Of a DNA stretch of 49,890 nt, positions 30,586 to 45,101 are shown one piece after another. The stretch comes from Escherichia phage Henu8. Positions within the stretch are counted from its first letter, which is position 1; every line of letters starts with the position of its first letter. The DNA lies in the sequence record NC_049853.1; one strand, given 5' to 3'. Under the pieces are notes generated by a model. That model was not told the DNA's origin. It made no database searches and was given only the letters and a program-made list of their open reading frames with translations. A program made the position numbers and the translations under genes.

Positions 30586-30891
30586 ATGGCTGAATATGGT
30601 GTTTCAACGTGGGATGCTAACGGGAAGTATAACAACTACGGAATCAAGCCAGTTTCCGTTGTTGGTGTCATTAGCCTTGCCGCTGGTCAGACAAGCGGAT
30701 CGTGGAGCTTTAGCATTCCAAGTGGTTTTAAGGTTGGGTATGTTGTTTCACTTGATGAAGGTGCCAGGGGAGTTGGAAGGGAAATAGTAGCATCTGGAAA
30801 TACAATAAGAATTAATCCTACATCGTCAATTGGTGCAAATAGGTATTCTTCTTCAAAGTGCGAGTTAGTTGTTTTTCTTGAGAGGGTTTAA
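30586..30891 (+). CDS. hypothetical tail-associated protein, MAEYG paralogue 1 (101 aa)
   Basis: Trimmed to ATG 30586 (GGAGG SD); N-terminus MAEYGVSTWDANGK. Confidence 0.5.
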   Translation: MAEYGVSTWDANGKYNNYGIKPVSVVGVISLAAGQTSGSWSFSIPSGFKVGYVVSLDEGARGVGREIVASGNTIRINPTSSIGANRYSSSKCELVVFLERV

Positions 30892-30892
30892 A

Positions 30893-31534
30893 ATGGCTGA
30901 GTATGGAGCAATGTTATCTTTATCAAATGGGAATCCATTTGTCACACCAAAATCAACGCCATTTTGCTTATATGGCAAGTACACTTATTCATCTTCAGGT
31001 ACTTCTGCCTATCATAGTGCAAGCGCAAATATACCAGTAAACCAATCTTATCCATGCATGGCATTTATAAAAACAACAAACACACAGCAGCCAACTGCAT
31101 TAATAGCTTACAGGAATGGTGGCAACATTTATGTAAACGGAGGCAATCCATACGGGCAATCATTTACAATGACTGTTTATATATTTGCCATATTCCCTCA
31201 AACTCTACCCAAATATGGTATGGCTATATGGGATGCAAGCGGAAAGTTGGTTTTAACTAATGAAAGCAGGGTGCTAACAGATCTTGTTACAATTGGTACT
31301 CCTGGTTCTTCAGGTGGAACGAATATAGATCAAACGTTATCTGGTTCTTATGCCGTTTGCCCTTCAAGGCTTGGTGCGGTTATAGGTATGGGCGCTTCTG
31401 ACATATATACATCATGCAGGTATAATGGTTCAAGCACAAGGATCGGTGCAGCAAGGACAACGCCAGGAACAGGTTCTATAACAAATAACGGAAATTCAAT
31501 AATTGCAATAAAGACTGATATTTACGACCAATGA
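30893..31534 (+). CDS. hypothetical tail-associated protein, MAEYG paralogue 2 (213 aa)
   Basis: Trimmed to ATG 30893; N-terminus MAEYGAML and internal KYGMAIWDASGK repeat matching paralogue 1; Ser/Gly/Thr/Asn-rich. Confidence 0.5.
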   Translation: MAEYGAMLSLSNGNPFVTPKSTPFCLYGKYTYSSSGTSAYHSASANIPVNQSYPCMAFIKTTNTQQPTALIAYRNGGNIYVNGGNPYGQSFTMTVYIFAIFPQTLPKYGMAIWDASGKLVLTNESRVLTDLVTIGTPGSSGGTNIDQTLSGSYAVCPSRLGAVIGMGASDIYTSCRYNGSSTRIGAARTTPGTGSITNNGNSIIAIKTDIYDQ

Positions 31535-31566
31535 AAAAAGGGGCTTTCGCCCCTTTGTTTTTATTT
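31534..31566. terminator. bidirectional rho-independent terminator between convergent genes
   Basis: A-run, GGGGC-TTTC-GCCCC hairpin, T-run. Confidence 0.65.
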
Positions 31567-31792
31567 ACAGACTGCAATCAGCGTTTTTAAAGTTATCAAT
31601 ACTTACCCACTGAAAATTAAACGGATAGCCAGCCTTAACAAGAGTGCGTTCGCCAACTCGCTTTACTCCAAAAATAGCAACTGAATACTGCATACCGCTA
31701 TTTTCATAAATAGCCGTGCATTCACGCTTAGGCATATTTGCACATCCAGTCAGGGCAATGGCTGCAATCAAAACGGCGATTAACTTTTTCAT
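31565..31792 (-). CDS. cor: Cor-like superinfection-exclusion lipoprotein
   Basis: 75 aa; MKKLIAVLIAAIALTGC signal peptide plus lipobox; GAAGGAG SD; convergent with tail genes and driven by its own promoter. Confidence 0.55.
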   Translation of the reverse strand: MKKLIAVLIAAIALTGCANMPKRECTAIYENSGMQYSVAIFGVKRVGERTLVKAGYPFNFQWVSIDNFKNADCSL

Positions 31793-31823
31793 CTTGGTAT
31801 CTCCTTCGTTGTTGTTGGTTGCA

Positions 31824-31867
31824 ACTATACACGATCTTGCGATTGGCGTTTAGCAAAAAGTGCTATT
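31824..31867 (-). promoter_or_regulatory. conserved phage promoter motif (variant) + -10 (TATAGT) for the cor-like gene
   Basis: Minus-strand AATAGCACTTTTTGCTAAAC, 18-nt spacer, TATAGT. Confidence 0.5.
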
Positions 31868-31920
31868 CTTGTTCTTTTTGTTATCCTGTGTTCTCAAATC
31901 TGCGGAGTCTTAAATTTAGC

Positions 31921-32150
31921 TCAAAAAGTGAACAACAATAGAGCGCAATGCATACAGATAAATATATATACATACATATAAATCAATAAGTTAGTAGTAT
32001 ATATATTCATGTTTGTTCTTTATTGTTATCTATGTTTTGTGTGATTTTGTGTGTCTGGTGATTTTTCTGTGATTATGCATGTGTCAGTGGTTATGTGTGT
32101 CTATATATCTATATCCGGCGCAAATGGAGGAACAAGAGAACAAAAATACA
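31921..32150. repeat. TA/TG-rich element, copy B (homologous to 2248-2470)
   Basis: Same shared blocks as copy A (AAATCAATAAGTTAG, ATATATATAC, GGTGATTTTT, GTGAT units); in a ~500-bp region without an ORF. Confidence 0.55.
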
Positions 32151-32237
32151 ACAAAGGTATTTATCAATCACTTACATGTGAATTTTGTTATCCAATTCTC
32201 CTAGAACGTTGTTAGAACAGAAAAAACAAAATAACCA

Positions 32238-32265
32238 TTGACTAAACGCATTAAATAGCTAAAAT
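32238..32265 (+). promoter_or_regulatory. sigma70-like promoter (TTGACT-16-TAAAAT)
   Basis: TTGACT 32238-32243, TAAAAT 32260-32265, upstream of the exonuclease gene. Confidence 0.5.
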
Positions 32266-32294
32266 GCAGGCATACCAACCAACGAGGGAAAATC

Positions 32295-33356
32295 ATGAAT
32301 AAGTTTATGGCGTACACCAGCGAAGAAATGAGTAACGAGCTTTATCACGATCCAGAAGCGTGGACGGCTGATTATGTTAGCGGTTCAAGCCTGGCAGAGA
32401 TTTACAGCACATGCCCGGCAGCGTGGAAGTTCAAGCCGCGTGATGACAAGAGCAAGGCGCTAGTTTTCGGTACGCAGTCGCATACCAACTTTGAAAGCAA
32501 GGAGCTTTTCGAAAAAACCTATCGCCGTGCGCCAGCGCCAGAAGACTTTAAGGATCTGATAACCAGCCAAACGGCGCTTGCTGCAAAGCTAAAGTCATTT
32601 GGCCTGAAAGGTACAACAGGAAAGACTTACCCTGAACTTATAAAAATGATGGTTGACTGCGGAGAAGACCTTAACGTCATGTGGTTAATCGACATGATCG
32701 CAGAAAGTCAGGCCAGGGCCGATGGGGTTCAGTTAATCGAAGCTAAAGATTACGATTCGTGCGTGGCAATGCGCCAGGTTCTGGAATCAATACCGGAACA
32801 TAACGCATGTATGAATAGCAAGACGGCACAACGTGAATTATCGTTGTTCGGTGAAATTAACGGCGTAAAAGTCAAAGTGCGATGCGATCACGTTGACGTA
32901 ACAAAGAACGTCACCGCAACGCTGATTGATGGTTACGATGAAAAAGGTCAGCCGATTTGCCGCGATATTATTTATCCAGAAGCTATTGTGATCACTGACT
33001 ACAAAACAACAATGAGCGCTAATCCTGTTGAGTTTATGCGCCTGGCTTACAATCACGGCTATTATTTGAAAATGGCGTTGCAATGTGATTTATTCAGAAA
33101 GGCGTATCCAGAAGAAAATCGACCTATAGTTGTGCGACTGTTAGCGCAAGAGAAGAAAGAGCCTTATTTGCCGTTGGCTTTCCGCATGAACAGTGAGCAA
33201 TTGAAGATAGGGCGCATTCAGTACATGAGCGTAATTAACCAGTTTGCCATGTGCCAGCAACATGACGTTTGGCCTTCGTATTCAAACGGCGAGCCGGAGG
33301 TTTGCCTTGATACTCCTGATTGGGTGCGACGCCAGTTTAAGCAATATCTTATTTAA
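32295..33356 (+). CDS. recombination exonuclease (PD-(D/E)XK family)
   Basis: 353 aa; ...VITDYKT... (D-x-K core) after acidic residues; first gene of an exonuclease, Erf, SSB series. Confidence 0.6.
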   Translation: MNKFMAYTSEEMSNELYHDPEAWTADYVSGSSLAEIYSTCPAAWKFKPRDDKSKALVFGTQSHTNFESKELFEKTYRRAPAPEDFKDLITSQTALAAKLKSFGLKGTTGKTYPELIKMMVDCGEDLNVMWLIDMIAESQARADGVQLIEAKDYDSCVAMRQVLESIPEHNACMNSKTAQRELSLFGEINGVKVKVRCDHVDVTKNVTATLIDGYDEKGQPICRDIIYPEAIVITDYKTTMSANPVEFMRLAYNHGYYLKMALQCDLFRKAYPEENRPIVVRLLAQEKKEPYLPLAFRMNSEQLKIGRIQYMSVINQFAMCQQHDVWPSYSNGEPEVCLDTPDWVRRQFKQYLI

Positions 33357-33761: not shown

Positions 33762-34418
33762 ATGAAACTATCAGAGCAATTCGACAAGGTTTTACCAGCA
33801 CTGCATAAGGCGCGTAGTTTGTTTGTAAAGGTGAAGAAGGATAAGCAAAACACGCACCTCAAAAACCGTTACGCAACGCTTGATTCCGTACTTGATGCAA
33901 TCACTCCAGCATTGAATGATAACGAGCTAATGTTGATGCAGGACATGATTGAAAGCGAACAACCAAACAGAATCAAGGTTGAGACAACAGTTCTTCATGT
34001 TTCCGGTCAGTGGGTGAAATTTTACGCAGAGCTACCAATCGTTAAAAACGATCCTCAAGGTGTCGGATCTGCATTCACATACGCACGTCGTTATGCAGCA
34101 GCAGCTGCATTTGGCTTAAGCCAGGCAGACGATGATGCGCAGATTGCCGTTAAATCTGCAAACGACTGGAAGCGTGACATTGAGAAATGCGAAAGCGTAA
34201 ACGAATTACAAGAAGTGCTCAAATCAGCATGGAAGGCAAGCGATCCGGCAAGCAAGCAGGTAATTAAAGAGCATTACGAAAAACGCAAAGCAGAGCTTGA
34301 GATCGGAAAAGCACGAGGATTTAATCCAGCGCAACCAAAACAAAATCTTGCCGCTCAAGACGTTGACACAAAAAACGACGAGCAAGTAAAATCACAAAGT
34401 ATCACTGATTTTGAATAA
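33762..34418 (+). CDS. erf: ssDNA-annealing protein (Erf-like)
   Basis: 218 aa; sits between exonuclease and SSB; N-terminal region resembles Erf-type annealing proteins as recalled from memory. Confidence 0.55.
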
Positions 34419-34425
34419 TTGACAT

Positions 34426-34447
34426 GGGGCGCTTGCGCCCCTTTCTT
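34426..34447 (+). terminator. terminator-like hairpin
   Basis: GGGGCGC-TT-GCGCCCC followed by TTTCTT. Confidence 0.45.
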
Positions 34448-34462
34448 ACAGGAGTATAAAAC

Positions 34463-34915
34463 ATGCATATTATTACTGGTGAGATCCGAAAAGAGCCGCG
34501 AGTAAAGCAAATGCCTAACGGCAGCACACTTTATGTGGTTGAACTTTCAGAGCGATACAAAGATAAAGATGGAAACTGGCAATATACAAACTACAGTTTC
34601 TTTTTTAATGCCAAAACAGAAGGTCTTAATGGTTGGTATGCTGAGGCGTTCCAGGTTGGCAAGGTTATTTCTGTATCTTGCGACACGCTGCGCATTGAGA
34701 CGCGTGAATATAACGGAAAGATGTATTCAAGTTTAATGCCAGGAGGATTTGCAAATCTTATCTTCAGTCAGCGCGGGGAAAGCCAGCAACAATATCAGCA
34801 GCGAACGCAAGGAGGATGGGGCCAACCACAACAACAGAATCAACCGCAACAACCGCAACAGCCAAGACAAAGCAATCAGCCTCCTATGGACTTTGACGAC
34901 GACATTCCTTTCTGA
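34463..34915 (+). CDS. ssb: single-stranded DNA-binding protein
   Basis: 150 aa; Gln/Pro/Gly-rich linker and acidic C-terminal tail DFDDDIPF typical of bacterial and phage SSB. Confidence 0.85.
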   Translation: MHIITGEIRKEPRVKQMPNGSTLYVVELSERYKDKDGNWQYTNYSFFFNAKTEGLNGWYAEAFQVGKVISVSCDTLRIETREYNGKMYSSLMPGGFANLIFSQRGESQQQYQQRTQGGWGQPQQQNQPQQPQQPRQSNQPPMDFDDDIPF

Positions 34916-41968: not shown

Positions 41969-42670
41969 ATGAGTAAAGAAACTGAAGTGACATTTGAACA
42001 AATAGAACGAGAAACATTCATTGGCAATGCTCTTGCTACTGGAGGCCATTACCAGGCCGTTAAACCAAATCAATATTATAAAGTCACTGGCAACCGCTAT
42101 AACGGCAGCAATACGCCGGACGTTGTGCGAGATTTGTGGTCTACGCCGTCTGAGCTTGTCGCATGGATGGAAATCGAATACGGTGATTATGACATCGACG
42201 CGGCGGCAAGCAAAGAAAATGCTGTATGTGAAAAATTCTACAGCAAGGAAACAAATTGCTTAAAGCGTTGGTGGGGTAGTAATAAGCATATATGGCTTAA
42301 TCCACCGTACAGCAATATTACGCCATTTGTTAAGAAGGCGATTGAGCAAATGGAGCACAACAACCAGATCGACATTCTGTTACCTTGCGACACATCGACA
42401 GGATGGTTTTATGAGGCACAACAGAAAGCAGCGGAAATAATCTGGATCACTGGCGAAGTTTACCAGGAGGACGGAACAGAATATTCCCGCACCGGACGCC
42501 TGGCGTTCACTTCAGCGCTTACAGGTAAACCAGTGCAGGGTAACAATAAAGGAAGCGTTATTTTCATCATGCGCGAACTTAAAGAAGGTGAGCAGCAGAA
42601 AACGCGATACGTTAAAATCAGCGACATTTGCCCTTCAGTGGCAGATCGTCGCGCACGGAAACGGAGCTAA
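41969..42670 (+). CDS. dam: DNA N6-adenine methyltransferase (phage Dam-type)
   Basis: 233 aa; NPPY catalytic motif (WLNPPYSN). Confidence 0.75.
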   Translation: MSKETEVTFEQIERETFIGNALATGGHYQAVKPNQYYKVTGNRYNGSNTPDVVRDLWSTPSELVAWMEIEYGDYDIDAAASKENAVCEKFYSKETNCLKRWWGSNKHIWLNPPYSNITPFVKKAIEQMEHNNQIDILLPCDTSTGWFYEAQQKAAEIIWITGEVYQEDGTEYSRTGRLAFTSALTGKPVQGNNKGSVIFIMRELKEGEQQKTRYVKISDICPSVADRRARKRS

Positions 42671-42674
42671 AACC

Positions 42675-42932
42675 ATGCAGAAAGAAAGAAGAGTTTTACT
42701 TAATGAATATGGCGAATTTCTTTTGTATCGCGCTATGGTATGCGATGCGCTTGATAAAAACCCCAACGTGAAAAAGATGATTGATTGCGATCCGTGGGAA
42801 TTTTCAAGCGCATTAGATATGAGCTTTGAGGAGACAAAAAAACTCCCGCTTGAAAAATGGAACGAGCAAATCAGAAATGACATGCAAGAATTTGTCGATT
42901 CGTGGAATTTTCAGCACGGAATGATCCACTAA
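42675..42932 (+). CDS. hypothetical protein (85 aa)
   Basis: ORF 42588..42932 trimmed to ATG 42675 just after the dam stop. Confidence 0.45.
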   Translation: MQKERRVLLNEYGEFLLYRAMVCDALDKNPNVKKMIDCDPWEFSSALDMSFEETKKLPLEKWNEQIRNDMQEFVDSWNFQHGMIH

Positions 42933-42975
42933 TAGCACTTTTTGTTAAAACGCCCGGCCTTGTGTCGGGCATAAT
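42932..42975 (+). promoter_or_regulatory. conserved phage promoter motif + -10 (CATAAT)
   Basis: TAATAGCACTTTTTGTTAAAAC with stop TAA embedded; 18-nt spacer; CATAAT 42970-42975. Confidence 0.55.
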
Positions 42976-43007
42976 TATTTCATCAAAACGAACAAGAGGA
43001 AAATAAA

Positions 43008-43187
43008 ATGGTTGTTTACGATCCACGCGCTTTTAAAATTGCTCAAGAAGTTTCACGCGAATCTGTTGCTGGCGGTTCGGTTAACGGCTATCAGTTTGAT
43101 TGGTCGGCAGCAATGACCTTGCTTAAGGTTGCATATGGTCACGCGCCAATTGAAACAGCGGAGGAATATTATAAGCATGAAGGTTGA
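43008..43187 (+). CDS. hypothetical protein (59 aa)
   Basis: Manual: AGAGGAAAA SD, ATG 43008, MVVYDPRAFKIAQEVSRESVAGGSVNGYQFDWSAAMTLLKVAYGHAPIETAEEYYKHEG; below ORF-track cutoff. Confidence 0.5.
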   Translation: MVVYDPRAFKIAQEVSRESVAGGSVNGYQFDWSAAMTLLKVAYGHAPIETAEEYYKHEG

Positions 43188-43419
43188 ACAAGGTAGGCAG
43201 GCCGTATGGGATCACGCAAAGGAGTGCGGGATCTCCGAAGACATAGCCAGGATAGCGAAATATTTTGATATTGCTGACATAAGCATTATCAGCGGAGACA
43301 AAATGACATTTCTCAATGAGCGACCGCGCAAGATGCATCGCGTACCTGCAATACCAACAAAGATTGATTTCAAAGAGGCTATGGCGAAAATTCGCGATCC
43401 GCGCAAATACTACAAATGA
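43177..43419 (+). CDS. hypothetical protein (80 aa)
   Basis: ORF 43129..43419 trimmed to ATG 43177 (GGAGGA SD); overlaps upstream stop. Confidence 0.5.
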   Translation: MKVEQGRQAVWDHAKECGISEDIARIAKYFDIADISIISGDKMTFLNERPRKMHRVPAIPTKIDFKEAMAKIRDPRKYYK

Positions 43420-43509
43420 GGATTATTATCATGTGGCGTTTGTTACTTTTGCCCTTACCTGTTATGATGGCGATCTCTATTGTATACGTTGTAATAATGA
43501 GAGCGTGAC

Positions 43510-43983
43510 ATGTGGAGTAAGATATTAAAATACGAAAATGGAATTTTAATCTGGAAGATTAAAACAAGAAAAGTGAATCCTGGAGATGTTGCTGGATGTA
43601 AAAATAGCAGGGGATATATAGTTTTTAACTATAAAGGGAAACAATATAGGGCGCACCGTGTTATTTGGCAAATTCACAACGGGGATATTCCGTCAAACAT
43701 GGAGATTGATCACATAAACCATGATAAAACTGACAACAGGATCGAAAATCTTAGGCTTGTTGATAGAACAGAAAACGGACGCAATCAGTCAAGGAGAAAT
43801 GACAATTCCAGTGGTTTTTGTGGTGTTCATTGGCACAAACCATTATCAAAATGGTGTGCAAGAATTAGGGTGAATGGTAAACTTGTGCATCTTGGATATT
43901 TTGATAAACTTGATGATGCAAAAATAGCAAGGATTGAAGCCAATAAAAAGTTTAACTTTCACGAAAATCACGGGGGAGAATAA
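43510..43983 (+). CDS. HNH homing endonuclease with AP2-like DNA-binding domain
   Basis: 157 aa; AHRVIWQIHNGDIPSNMEIDHINHDKTDNRIENLRLV (HNH core) then GVHWHKPLSKWCARIRVNGKLVHLGYFD (AP2-like); AT-rich coding sequence. Confidence 0.8.
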   Translation: MWSKILKYENGILIWKIKTRKVNPGDVAGCKNSRGYIVFNYKGKQYRAHRVIWQIHNGDIPSNMEIDHINHDKTDNRIENLRLVDRTENGRNQSRRNDNSSGFCGVHWHKPLSKWCARIRVNGKLVHLGYFDKLDDAKIARIEANKKFNFHENHGGE

Positions 43984-43988
43984 TTGCA

Positions 43989-45101
43989 ATGAAAATTAAA
44001 ATAAGCGATGAACAATTTATCAATGAGCGCAAGCAGGGAAAGACATATAAGCAGATCGCTAATGAGTATGGCATGAACGTTCGCAGCATTGAGCGACGAG
44101 CGGCACGATTAGCAAAGCAAGGTAAAGTTACAACCATCGGATCGCCTGGTTTTGGTGTTACTGGAGAATCAAAGCTAATTGATAAAGATGGCAATGTGGT
44201 TATGACATGGATTAAGACAAGTAAGGACCGCGAACAGTTAGAAGCATTAATGCAGGCCGCTATGGATGCATTTAGCGAAGAAGTTCCTAGACTTGATCCG
44301 CAACCAGAATCAAAAAAGGATTATAGCGAGACGTTATCACTGTATCCGATCTTTGATATGCACTTGGGCGCAATGGCGCATAAGCATGAATGCGGCGAGA
44401 ATTGGGATACAGCAACAGCAGAGCGCGTAATGAATAATTTCATTGATTATTCCATCCAGTGCGCGCCGGATAGTGAAAAGGCTGTTTTGCTGATTGGTGG
44501 TGACATGCTGCATAGTGACGGCTTGGAAGCAGTGACACCTGCAAGCGGTCACGTATTGGATCAAGATAGTCGATACGCAAAACTTGTTTATGTTGCCATA
44601 CGGTCAGTGCGTAGAGCAATTACAAAGCTGTTATCAAAACACAAAAACGTCGAGATTCAGATCATTGAAGGCAACCACGACCAAAGCGGCATGATCTGGT
44701 TGCGCGCAGCAATGGCGGCAGCATATGAGAATGAGCCGCGAGTGCATGTTGATGTTTCTCCGCGAGTAGTTCATCACACACAATATGGCAAAACATTCCT
44801 GGCATACCATCATGGGCATACTATCCGCAAGCCTGAAACATTACTAATGATGTGCGCGGCAGACTGGCGCGAAGACTTCGGAAATTCAAAAATGATGTAT
44901 GCTCACGTAGGGCACTGGCATCATCAGACAGTAACTGAAACAAGCCTTGGTATTGTTGAAGTGCATAGCACTATGGCGGCAAAAGATGCATATGCGGCGC
45001 GCGGTGGATGGCGTTCTCGTCGCCGTGCGGCTGTTATTGTTTATGATAAAGAATACGGAGAAGTAGGGCGATTTATGCATTATCCAGAAATGGCTGGTTG
45101 A
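43989..45101 (+). CDS. calcineurin-like metallophosphoesterase with N-terminal HTH
   Basis: 370 aa; GGDMLH ... GNHD ... GHWHH metallophosphatase motifs; N-terminal KTYKQIANEYGMNVRSIERR HTH-like. Confidence 0.65.
   Translation: MKIKISDEQFINERKQGKTYKQIANEYGMNVRSIERRAARLAKQGKVTTIGSPGFGVTGESKLIDKDGNVVMTWIKTSKDREQLEALMQAAMDAFSEEVPRLDPQPESKKDYSETLSLYPIFDMHLGAMAHKHECGENWDTATAERVMNNFIDYSIQCAPDSEKAVLLIGGDMLHSDGLEAVTPASGHVLDQDSRYAKLVYVAIRSVRRAITKLLSKHKNVEIQIIEGNHDQSGMIWLRAAMAAAYENEPRVHVDVSPRVVHHTQYGKTFLAYHHGHTIRKPETLLMMCAADWREDFGNSKMMYAHVGHWHHQTVTETSLGIVEVHSTMAAKDAYAARGGWRSRRRAAVIVYDKEYGEVGRFMHYPEMAG

Follow-up and report, generated by a model that had tools for sequence, protein, structure and literature searches.

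A probable free-standing HNH-AP2 homing endonuclease gene at a presence/absence polymorphic site upstream of the phosphoesterase gene of Escherichia phage Henu8

The genome of Escherichia phage Henu8 (NC_049853.1; 49,890 nucleotides, analysed over its full length and referred to here as the window) carries on the plus strand, at 43510..43983, a 157-aa ORF with an ATG start that precedes a metallophosphoesterase gene. The locus raises the question of whether this ORF is a selfish mobile insertion that marks a polymorphic site between related phages, as the initial annotation proposed on finding an HNH core, an AP2-like domain and an AT-rich coding sequence, or a gene with a core function in the phage. 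The gene itself is already known. The protein encoded by 43510..43983 is identical to the database entry 'HNH endonuclease [Escherichia phage Henu8]' (QEA10106.1 / YP_009904961.1). Both RefSeq (YP_009904961.1) and the Henu8 paper record the gene as an HNH endonuclease, the paper as ORF 57 at 43,510-43,983 with 157 aa and a best match of 53.9% identity (PMC12210894). The sole speculation on ORF 57 by the Henu8 authors is its use as an antibiotic adjuvant (PMC12210894), a role to which the sequence gives no support. HNH-AP2 homing endonucleases of T1-like phages have likewise been described since 2004, including in a study by Magnani et al. 2004 that is taken here as cited in PMC10448857.

The ORF scan showed that the stop-to-stop frame of the HNH ORF opens at 43501, so that the ORF has no possible earlier in-frame start. 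The GC content of the gene is 35.4% (GC3 31%) compared with 44.2% for the window, which is approximately 3.2 standard deviations under the mean; 1.2% of 474-bp stretches are equally low in GC, and the AT-rich character attributed to the coding sequence is therefore borne out by the windowed GC check. Other low-GC islands (down to 32%) were seen in the window, none of them related to the HNH gene: one at ~1931-2785 is without a long ORF; one at 30711-31335 spans two ORFs after that of a 1192-aa tail protein; and one at 31471-32455 contains a 75-aa minus-strand ORF (31565..31792) with a lipoprotein-type signal (…LTGC) and is otherwise mostly non-coding.

The gene order on the plus strand is helicase, VRR-NUC nuclease, Dam methylase, three small ORFs, a 30-aa ORF, the HNH gene, a 370-aa gene, holin, endolysin and spanin. 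The HNH gene ends 5 nt upstream of the 370-aa gene, which is located at 43989..45101 (plus strand), is intact and encodes a metallophosphoesterase with an HTH and an Mre11/SbcD-like part ('DNA repair exonuclease'; PHROG 704, 7e-151) that contains the motifs DMH, GDMLH, GNHD, HHGH and GHWH; the protein is 370 aa long in Henu8 versus 371 aa in phages with an empty site. Upstream, the small ORFs include phrog_2180, phrog_2817 and the 30-aa ORF. The gene thus does lie between small genes and the metallophosphoesterase gene, and the nearby helicase, VRR-NUC and Dam genes agree with its assignment to a DNA metabolism region.

The 30-aa ORF is hydrophobic (MRIIIMWRLLLLPLPVMMAISIVYVVIMRA; 43416..43508, plus strand) and probably encodes a real small membrane protein. 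A single nucleotide separates its stop from the HNH ATG, and its ending is remodelled by the insertion. It overlaps the preceding stop (ATGA), is conserved between Hanrivervirus and Warwickvirus (mar001J1), and is annotated in only some relatives, being a gene in JLBYU09. A consensus scan showed no terminator adjoining the HNH gene that would be its own. The same type of scan gave six promoter-like sites compared with 9.3 for shuffled sequence, which is nothing above chance and not evidence either way; one of these sites, at 43440-43468, falls in sequence common to empty-site phages. Because the HNH ATG follows the upstream stop at a distance of 1 nt and the next ribosome-binding site is supplied by the final codons of the HNH gene, the gene appears to ride an existing operon, in which it would be expressed by translational coupling.

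No Rfam family, including group I and group II introns, was found over threshold in the whole window, and an intron context was rejected on this basis; as both neighbouring genes are also intact, the description of the gene as free-standing is upheld. A terminase-associated HNH packaging factor was rejected as well, because no packaging gene is nearby and the gene is absent in most relatives. When phmmer and a 77-sequence profile were run against all six-frame ORFs of the window, no paralogue was found and the HNH gene matched only itself, indicating that it is the sole member of its family in the genome.

Domain searches showed that Pfam HNH_3 (PF13392) matches aa 46-91 over the full length of the profile (1-46/46) with 76.4 bits against a cut-off of 24.8 (E=1.3e-21), and PHROG 99 'HNH endonuclease' matches with 3e-68. 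The clear HNH core claimed for the 157-aa ORF is thus present. This core (43645..43782, plus strand) is a beta-beta-alpha-metal nuclease of the His-Me finger type with D67, H68, N80 and N89, which are invariant in an alignment of 77 homologues, as are H49, N76, N92, G105 and H151. A sequence search of the PDB gave a sole, weak match (E=0.11) to I-HmuI (1u3e), and in this alignment D67/H68/N80/N89 pair with D74/H75/N87/N96 of I-HmuI. The core is preceded by an N-terminal beta-hairpin region (aa 1-45; 43510..43644, plus strand), which belongs to the segment superposable on I-HmuI. The AP2-like DNA-binding domain, predicted as a three-stranded sheet and a helix, covers aa 102-148 (43813..43953, plus strand). 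Pfam AP2 (PF00847) matches these residues with E=2.2e-4, but its score of 21.9 bits is under the gathering cut-off of 33.3; a precomputed PF00847 match is present in several of the 120 listed homologues.

An AlphaFold2 model was built on the 77-homologue alignment and had a mean pLDDT of 90.2. In the model, N-terminal hairpins (strands 6-9, 12-15, 37-41 and 44-47; pLDDT ~95) are followed by a beta-beta-alpha unit formed by strands 64-68 and 81-85 and helix 86-91 (pLDDT >90), a linker of lower confidence (92-105), and an AP2 part in which strands 106-109, 114-121 and 124-131 precede helix 134-147. Since the sequence search of the PDB had given only I-HmuI, the AP2 domain had to be sought by fold. 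Foldseek against the PDB ranked I-HmuI (1u3e) first (89 columns, probability 1.00), and the AP2 matches were TEM1 (7et5, rmsd 1.6 Å, 53 columns, probability 1.00; also 7et4) and AtERF1 (1gcc, rmsd 1.7 Å, 49 columns, 35% identity, TMt 0.63, probability 1.00). The E-values were modest (3e-3 to 4e-2) because each match covers one domain only. In our view, the predicted fold justifies the AP2 assignment, though it is under the Pfam sequence threshold: of the AP2-like domain proposed from the sequence, the fold is supported by the 7et5 and 1gcc matches and the confidence of the model, and the Pfam cut-off is not reached.

The likeness to the plant AP2/ERF domains (AtERF1 1gcc and TEM1 7et5) consists of a three-stranded antiparallel sheet on one helix, with 28-35% identity over ~50 residues and an rmsd of 1.6-1.7 Å. 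However, the plant proteins are transcription factors, whereas the predicted domain in Henu8 is an accessory module of a nuclease and scores under the Pfam AP2 gathering threshold. The N-terminal 89 residues of the Henu8 protein are matched best by the structure of I-HmuI of Bacillus phage SPO1 (PDB 1u3e), which belongs to the same His-Me finger group (HNH_3) and whose catalytic Asp-His, structural Asn and metal-ligand Asn correspond one-to-one. The two proteins share ~25% sequence identity, and they differ in that the I-HmuI gene lies within a group I intron and its product has C-terminal DNA binding of the helix-turn-helix/NUMOD type, whereas the Henu8 protein is free-standing and carries an AP2-type domain. 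I-HmuI is reported to nick one strand of its target (Shen et al. 2004; Landthaler and Shub). His-Me finger group 2 has been described as taking in both I-HmuI and AP2-bearing proteins (PMC5714182).

Free-standing HNN-AP2 endonucleases are known from T1, Rtp, T5, RB16/RB43 and Xp10/Xop411/OP1 (Lee et al. 2007, PMC2248197). The Henu8 gene resembles them in combining an HNH_3-type 'HNN' core lacking Cys dyads with a C-terminal AP2-type domain, and in being free-standing, scattered, variably present and prone to degeneration; T1 belongs to the same phage group (Drexlerviridae). It differs from them in that the Henu8 lineage is at most 55% identical to any protein outside its own 14-member cluster in a set of 5.8 billion sequences, and in its site between the small ORF and the phosphoesterase gene, which is not used by the other members examined. 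The T4-type free-standing homing endonuclease genes (HEGs) of the Seg and Mob kinds home without an intron, and their carriers have protective substitutions near the insertion point. The Henu8 gene is similar to these in its intergenic location, its presence/absence polymorphism and an altered carrier allele near the insertion point. However, Seg proteins are GIY-YIG enzymes, and Mob proteins are of another HNH subgroup, His-Me group 1 (PMC5714182); neither kind has a sequence relationship to the Henu8 protein past the HNH motif.

The distribution of the gene was examined with a 2.7-kb query around it, which was searched against a phage collection of 50,697 records. The closest genomes in the collection were Hanriverviruses (Drexlerviridae, Tempevirinae; relatives of pSf-1). 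The result showed that approximately 30 close relatives match the query in two pieces, skipping ~470 bp, and that a full-length match across the query is found only in vB_EcoP_06, A118 and A123. Among the 40 phage records that have the 5′ end of the phosphoesterase gene in common, the HNH gene is carried by three and the other 37 have a clean empty site. At a DNA identity of at least 97%, the gene was present in 3 of the 50,697 records, always at the same site. Extra carriers at this site were found in Logan assemblies, and carriers are spread over five or more backgrounds that diverge somewhat from one another. In a set of 5.8 billion sequences, the HNH protein falls in a single cluster of 14 members, encoded on several dozen contigs; the closest other cluster shares 54% identity with it. 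Outside this lineage, the next-best proteins are at most 55% identical and are encoded at other loci, for example after the helicase gene in Webervirus MezzoGao, and relatives of the same family are found at many other loci in Drexlerviridae genomes.

Additional HNH_3 genes were noticed in Fulano1 (L010; 15569-16042, 16425-16898 and 18555-19055) and on the Logan contig SRR20950976_144961 (L013; 2585-3094 and 8051-8524). Extra HNH_3 sites in close relatives, such as the gap between the helicase and VRR-NUC genes and the minus-strand early block, are empty in the window; since relatives carry HNH_3 genes there, the window has empty alleles for several other homing endonucleases.

Alignment of the junctions showed that the segment absent in HEG-less relatives is 43503..43983 (plus strand), with the left breakpoint after 43502 (...ATAATGAGA/, the slash denoting the junction here and below). 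When filled and empty genomes are compared, homology ends after 43502 (...GTTGTnATAATGAGA) and is full again from 44007 (GATGAACAATTTATC...). The empty site reads ...ATAATGAGATAAGGAGAATTTTTGATGAAGCAAATCAAAATCACA/GATGAAC and the filled site reads ...ATAATGAGAGCGTGACATG[HNH]...GGGGGAGAATAATTGCAATGAAAATTAAAATAAGC/GATGAAC. On the left, the insertion turns the 30-aa ORF ending in ...MR and a stop into one ending in ...MRA and a stop, with the frame kept. On the right, the 3′ end of the insert is GGGGGAGAA TAA, and the last codons, GGG GGA GAA TAA, take over from the native AGGAG the role of Shine-Dalgarno sequence for the phosphoesterase gene. All five HEG-less genomes that were aligned have the same empty site, with its own stop codon and ribosome-binding site intact. 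The presence/absence comparison (three carriers versus 37 empty sites) confirms that the site is polymorphic among related phages, and the gene is neither universally conserved nor of matching composition, with 3/40 carriers and a GC content of 35.4% versus 44.2%. The view of the gene as a selfish mobile insertion is supported by the precise empty sites, the foreign composition and the family members at other loci, from which we infer cleavage and homing.

Sequence differences linked to the presence of the HEG lie at 43984..44006 (plus strand), a stretch that takes in the spacer and codons one to six of the phosphoesterase gene and forms a candidate immunity allele. In carriers the phosphoesterase gene starts with ATG AAA ATT AAA ATA AGC, and in empty-site genomes it starts with ATG AAG CAA ATC AAA ATC ACA. 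Relative to the empty-site start, the carrier allele shows three silent changes, one T>S replacement and the loss of one codon within 18-21 nt (counted by nucleotide, five positions are substituted and 3 nt are deleted within the gene's first 18 nt), followed by ~45 invariant bases. The exact carrier allele was present in all three carriers and in none of the 37 non-carriers among the 40 records, and the divergent copy on a 51.9-kb Logan contig (L019) has the same codon deletion together with the ATT, ATA and AGC changes. A 33-nt search for the exact carrier allele gave no match in IMG/VR and none in JGI metagenomes; the empty allele was found on five IMG/VR contigs.

When four carriers were compared with five non-carriers, fixed differences between HEG+ and HEG-less genomes were found only at 43967-44006, with none in the next 1,400 bp and none in ~860 bp leftward. 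A long co-conversion haplotype was rejected for this reason, and only the immediate junction is linked to the HEG. Clustered, mostly silent changes beside a HEG are expected if the enzyme recognises this stretch in empty genomes, and the carrier variant at 43984-44006 may therefore be a target-site immunity allele. The assignment of the target site is drawn solely from the position of the linked polymorphisms and should be read as putative; for some HNH and GIY-YIG HEGs, the cut falls tens to hundreds of bases away from the insertion point.

We consider it likely that ORF 43510..43983 is a free-standing, I-HmuI-like HNH_3 HEG fused to a C-terminal AP2-type domain, which would spread by cleavage and homing. 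In the proposed mechanism, HEG+ and HEG-less relatives would co-infect one cell, and the AP2 domain together with the N-terminal hairpins would bind the empty-site sequence around ...ATAATGAGATAAGGAGAATTTTTGATGAAGCAAATCAAAATCACA..., after which the HNH core would nick or cut near the bound site, the candidate target vicinity being ...GAGATAAGGAGAATTTTTGATGAAGCAAATC.... By analogy with I-HmuI, a single-strand nick is likely, which replication would then convert to a break. Recombinational repair from the HEG+ genome would copy the gene and a short flank into the recipient, and the altered sequence at 43984-44006 would shield the carrier from self-cutting.

Comparison of the window with individual genomes showed that identity to the carrier A118 is 96-99% only over ~42750-44250, is 78-84% leftward and falls to 73-84% rightward, whereas identity to the non-carrier KarlJaspers (MZ501090, whose empty site falls within ~34,400-34,700) is 93-98% in the flanks where A118 diverges. 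Against the carrier vB_EcoP_06, there is a 74% block at 43000-43250. Because the flanks are mosaic, the carriers do not form a simple clade or share one flank haplotype. This identity profile fits horizontal spread and is supportive but not decisive, as general recombination could equally have produced it; since mosaicism is widespread among these phages, the profile by itself is no proof of homing. HEGs at the boundaries of genetic exchange have been described (PMC10448857). These are sharp allele switches near the gene, within genomes that are otherwise 95-99% identical: at 42000-42750, A118 is 78-84% identical across the Dam gene region, and at 43000-43250, vB_EcoP_06 is 74% identical across a 59-aa ORF (phrog_2180). 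In addition, about 20 'Campylobacter phage' records (MG065636-MG065685, UNVERIFIED) are Tempevirinae that are ~89-93% identical to coliphages over the 2.7-kb query, and the Campylobacter host label of these records looks doubtful.

The copies of the gene bear on the possibility that it is a decaying HEG remnant that is no longer mobile, that is, an inert passenger with no current nuclease activity. In the A118 and A123 copies, an A-run has lost 1 nt, so that the protein ends after aa 137 and lacks the AP2 helix (P0124, 138 aa; A118, MG065675, L006 ~2478-2895; A123, MG065669), and not every copy need therefore be active. The extreme C-terminus also differs among copies, which end in GGE, in GR or, by read-through, in NNCNEN before the stop; in P0125, P0131 and P0132 (162 aa), the stop is lost and translation continues (…NNCNEN) into the 5′ end of the phosphoesterase gene. 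In Xanthomonas phages, HNN-AP2 genes have been reported to degenerate progressively (PMC2248197). However, the Henu8 copy is full length and keeps all residues that are invariant in the 77 homologues, its fold is predicted with confidence, and the changes from copy to copy are mostly synonymous: the ratio of synonymous to nonsynonymous changes is 6:1 against A118 (137 codons) and 7:5 against vB_EcoP_06, where the last six codons hold three of the five nonsynonymous changes. The counts are small, but the synonymous excess suggests that the protein is under selection. The frameshift shared by A118 and A123 may be either HEG decay or a sequencing error, since it lies in a homopolymer of UNVERIFIED records. 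Given these data, an inert remnant is an unlikely description of the Henu8 gene. Two further observations concern the same set of proteins. On L019 (3001-3489), the HNH and phosphoesterase genes overlap by 11 nt; and the idea that all four 162-aa members of the cluster are N-terminal chimeras was rejected, as their sequences show that only P0001 is one.

With an active homing endonuclease as the preferred reading, it could still be asked whether the nuclease is domesticated and serves the phage against competing phages or host DNA, rather than being purely selfish. The putative target is in a gene of co-infecting relatives, so that cutting would also harm competitors, and a host-directed role was raised in the Henu8 paper under 'antibiotic adjuvant' (PMC12210894). 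However, competitive exclusion is a by-product of homing and not an alternative mechanism, most sister phages do without the gene yet grow well, neither a terminase nor a defence-related gene adjoins, and nothing points to host targeting. Domestication is thus rather improbable, somewhat more so than decay.

The direction of the polymorphism was likewise considered, since the gene could be ancestral at the locus and deleted in most relatives rather than inserted in few. Presence and absence alone give no direction, precise loss is an accepted part of the HEG life cycle, and the spread of carriers over at least five somewhat divergent backgrounds would suit an old gene. Against this, the GC content of the gene is 9 points under that of the genome, the empty site with its intact stop and ribosome-binding site is the same in all five aligned HEG-less genomes, the nearest protein relatives are at unrelated loci and the carrier flank haplotypes are not monophyletic, so that ancestral presence is very improbable. 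It is scarcely credible that the protein is mainly an AP2-type DNA-binding regulator with a vestigial HNH domain: HEG AP2 domains have been co-opted as transcription factors (background in PMC10448857) and, according to a 2026 preprint, as CRISPR-silencing proteins, but the catalytic D-H, Asn and Asn are intact and invariant across the family and the locus behaves as an insertion polymorphism.

Another HNH_3 gene, encoding 161 aa and 38% identical, is present in Warwickvirus mar001J1 (L012 2618-3103, LR027388; to be compared with window 43416-43983) and in phage EC167, between an 80-aa gene and the 30-aa ORF, which places it ~95 bp upstream of the Henu8 site, across the 30-aa ORF. An apparent fusion gene was found on the Logan contig SRR20950976_144961 (L013 5001-5489; again compared with window 43416-43983). 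This contig has a mar001J1-type left flank and the first ~95 nt (~30 codons) of the mar001J1-type gene, including a 12-nt indel, and it switches at the shared CCTGGAGA to a Henu8-type nuclease and AP2 body of ~98% identity; the 30-aa ORF is absent. At the crossover, the sequence common to both parental types is only 8 nt long, which makes a k-mer assembly artefact unlikely; the fusion is seen on a single contig from one sample. It is thus conceivable, though doubtful at present, that two adjacent HEG sites precede the phosphoesterase gene and that the HEGs there can recombine.

The Henu8 HNH gene is of an ordinary and known kind; the value of the finding is mainly at the level of annotation, and it matters little past a good annotation of the locus. 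To the known gene, the analysis adds the exact insertion point, a likely target in the form of the empty-site sequence, and a candidate immunity allele of 18 nt. A homing experiment would be simple with cultured phages, namely Henu8 and the BASEL phage Bas06 KarlJaspers, and the locus is best excluded from Hanrivervirus phylogenies. If the fusion gene is real and functional, HEG–HEG recombination at this locus would delete a conserved phage gene and swap the N-terminal regions that contact DNA, and such an N-terminal swap could be a route to new target specificity.
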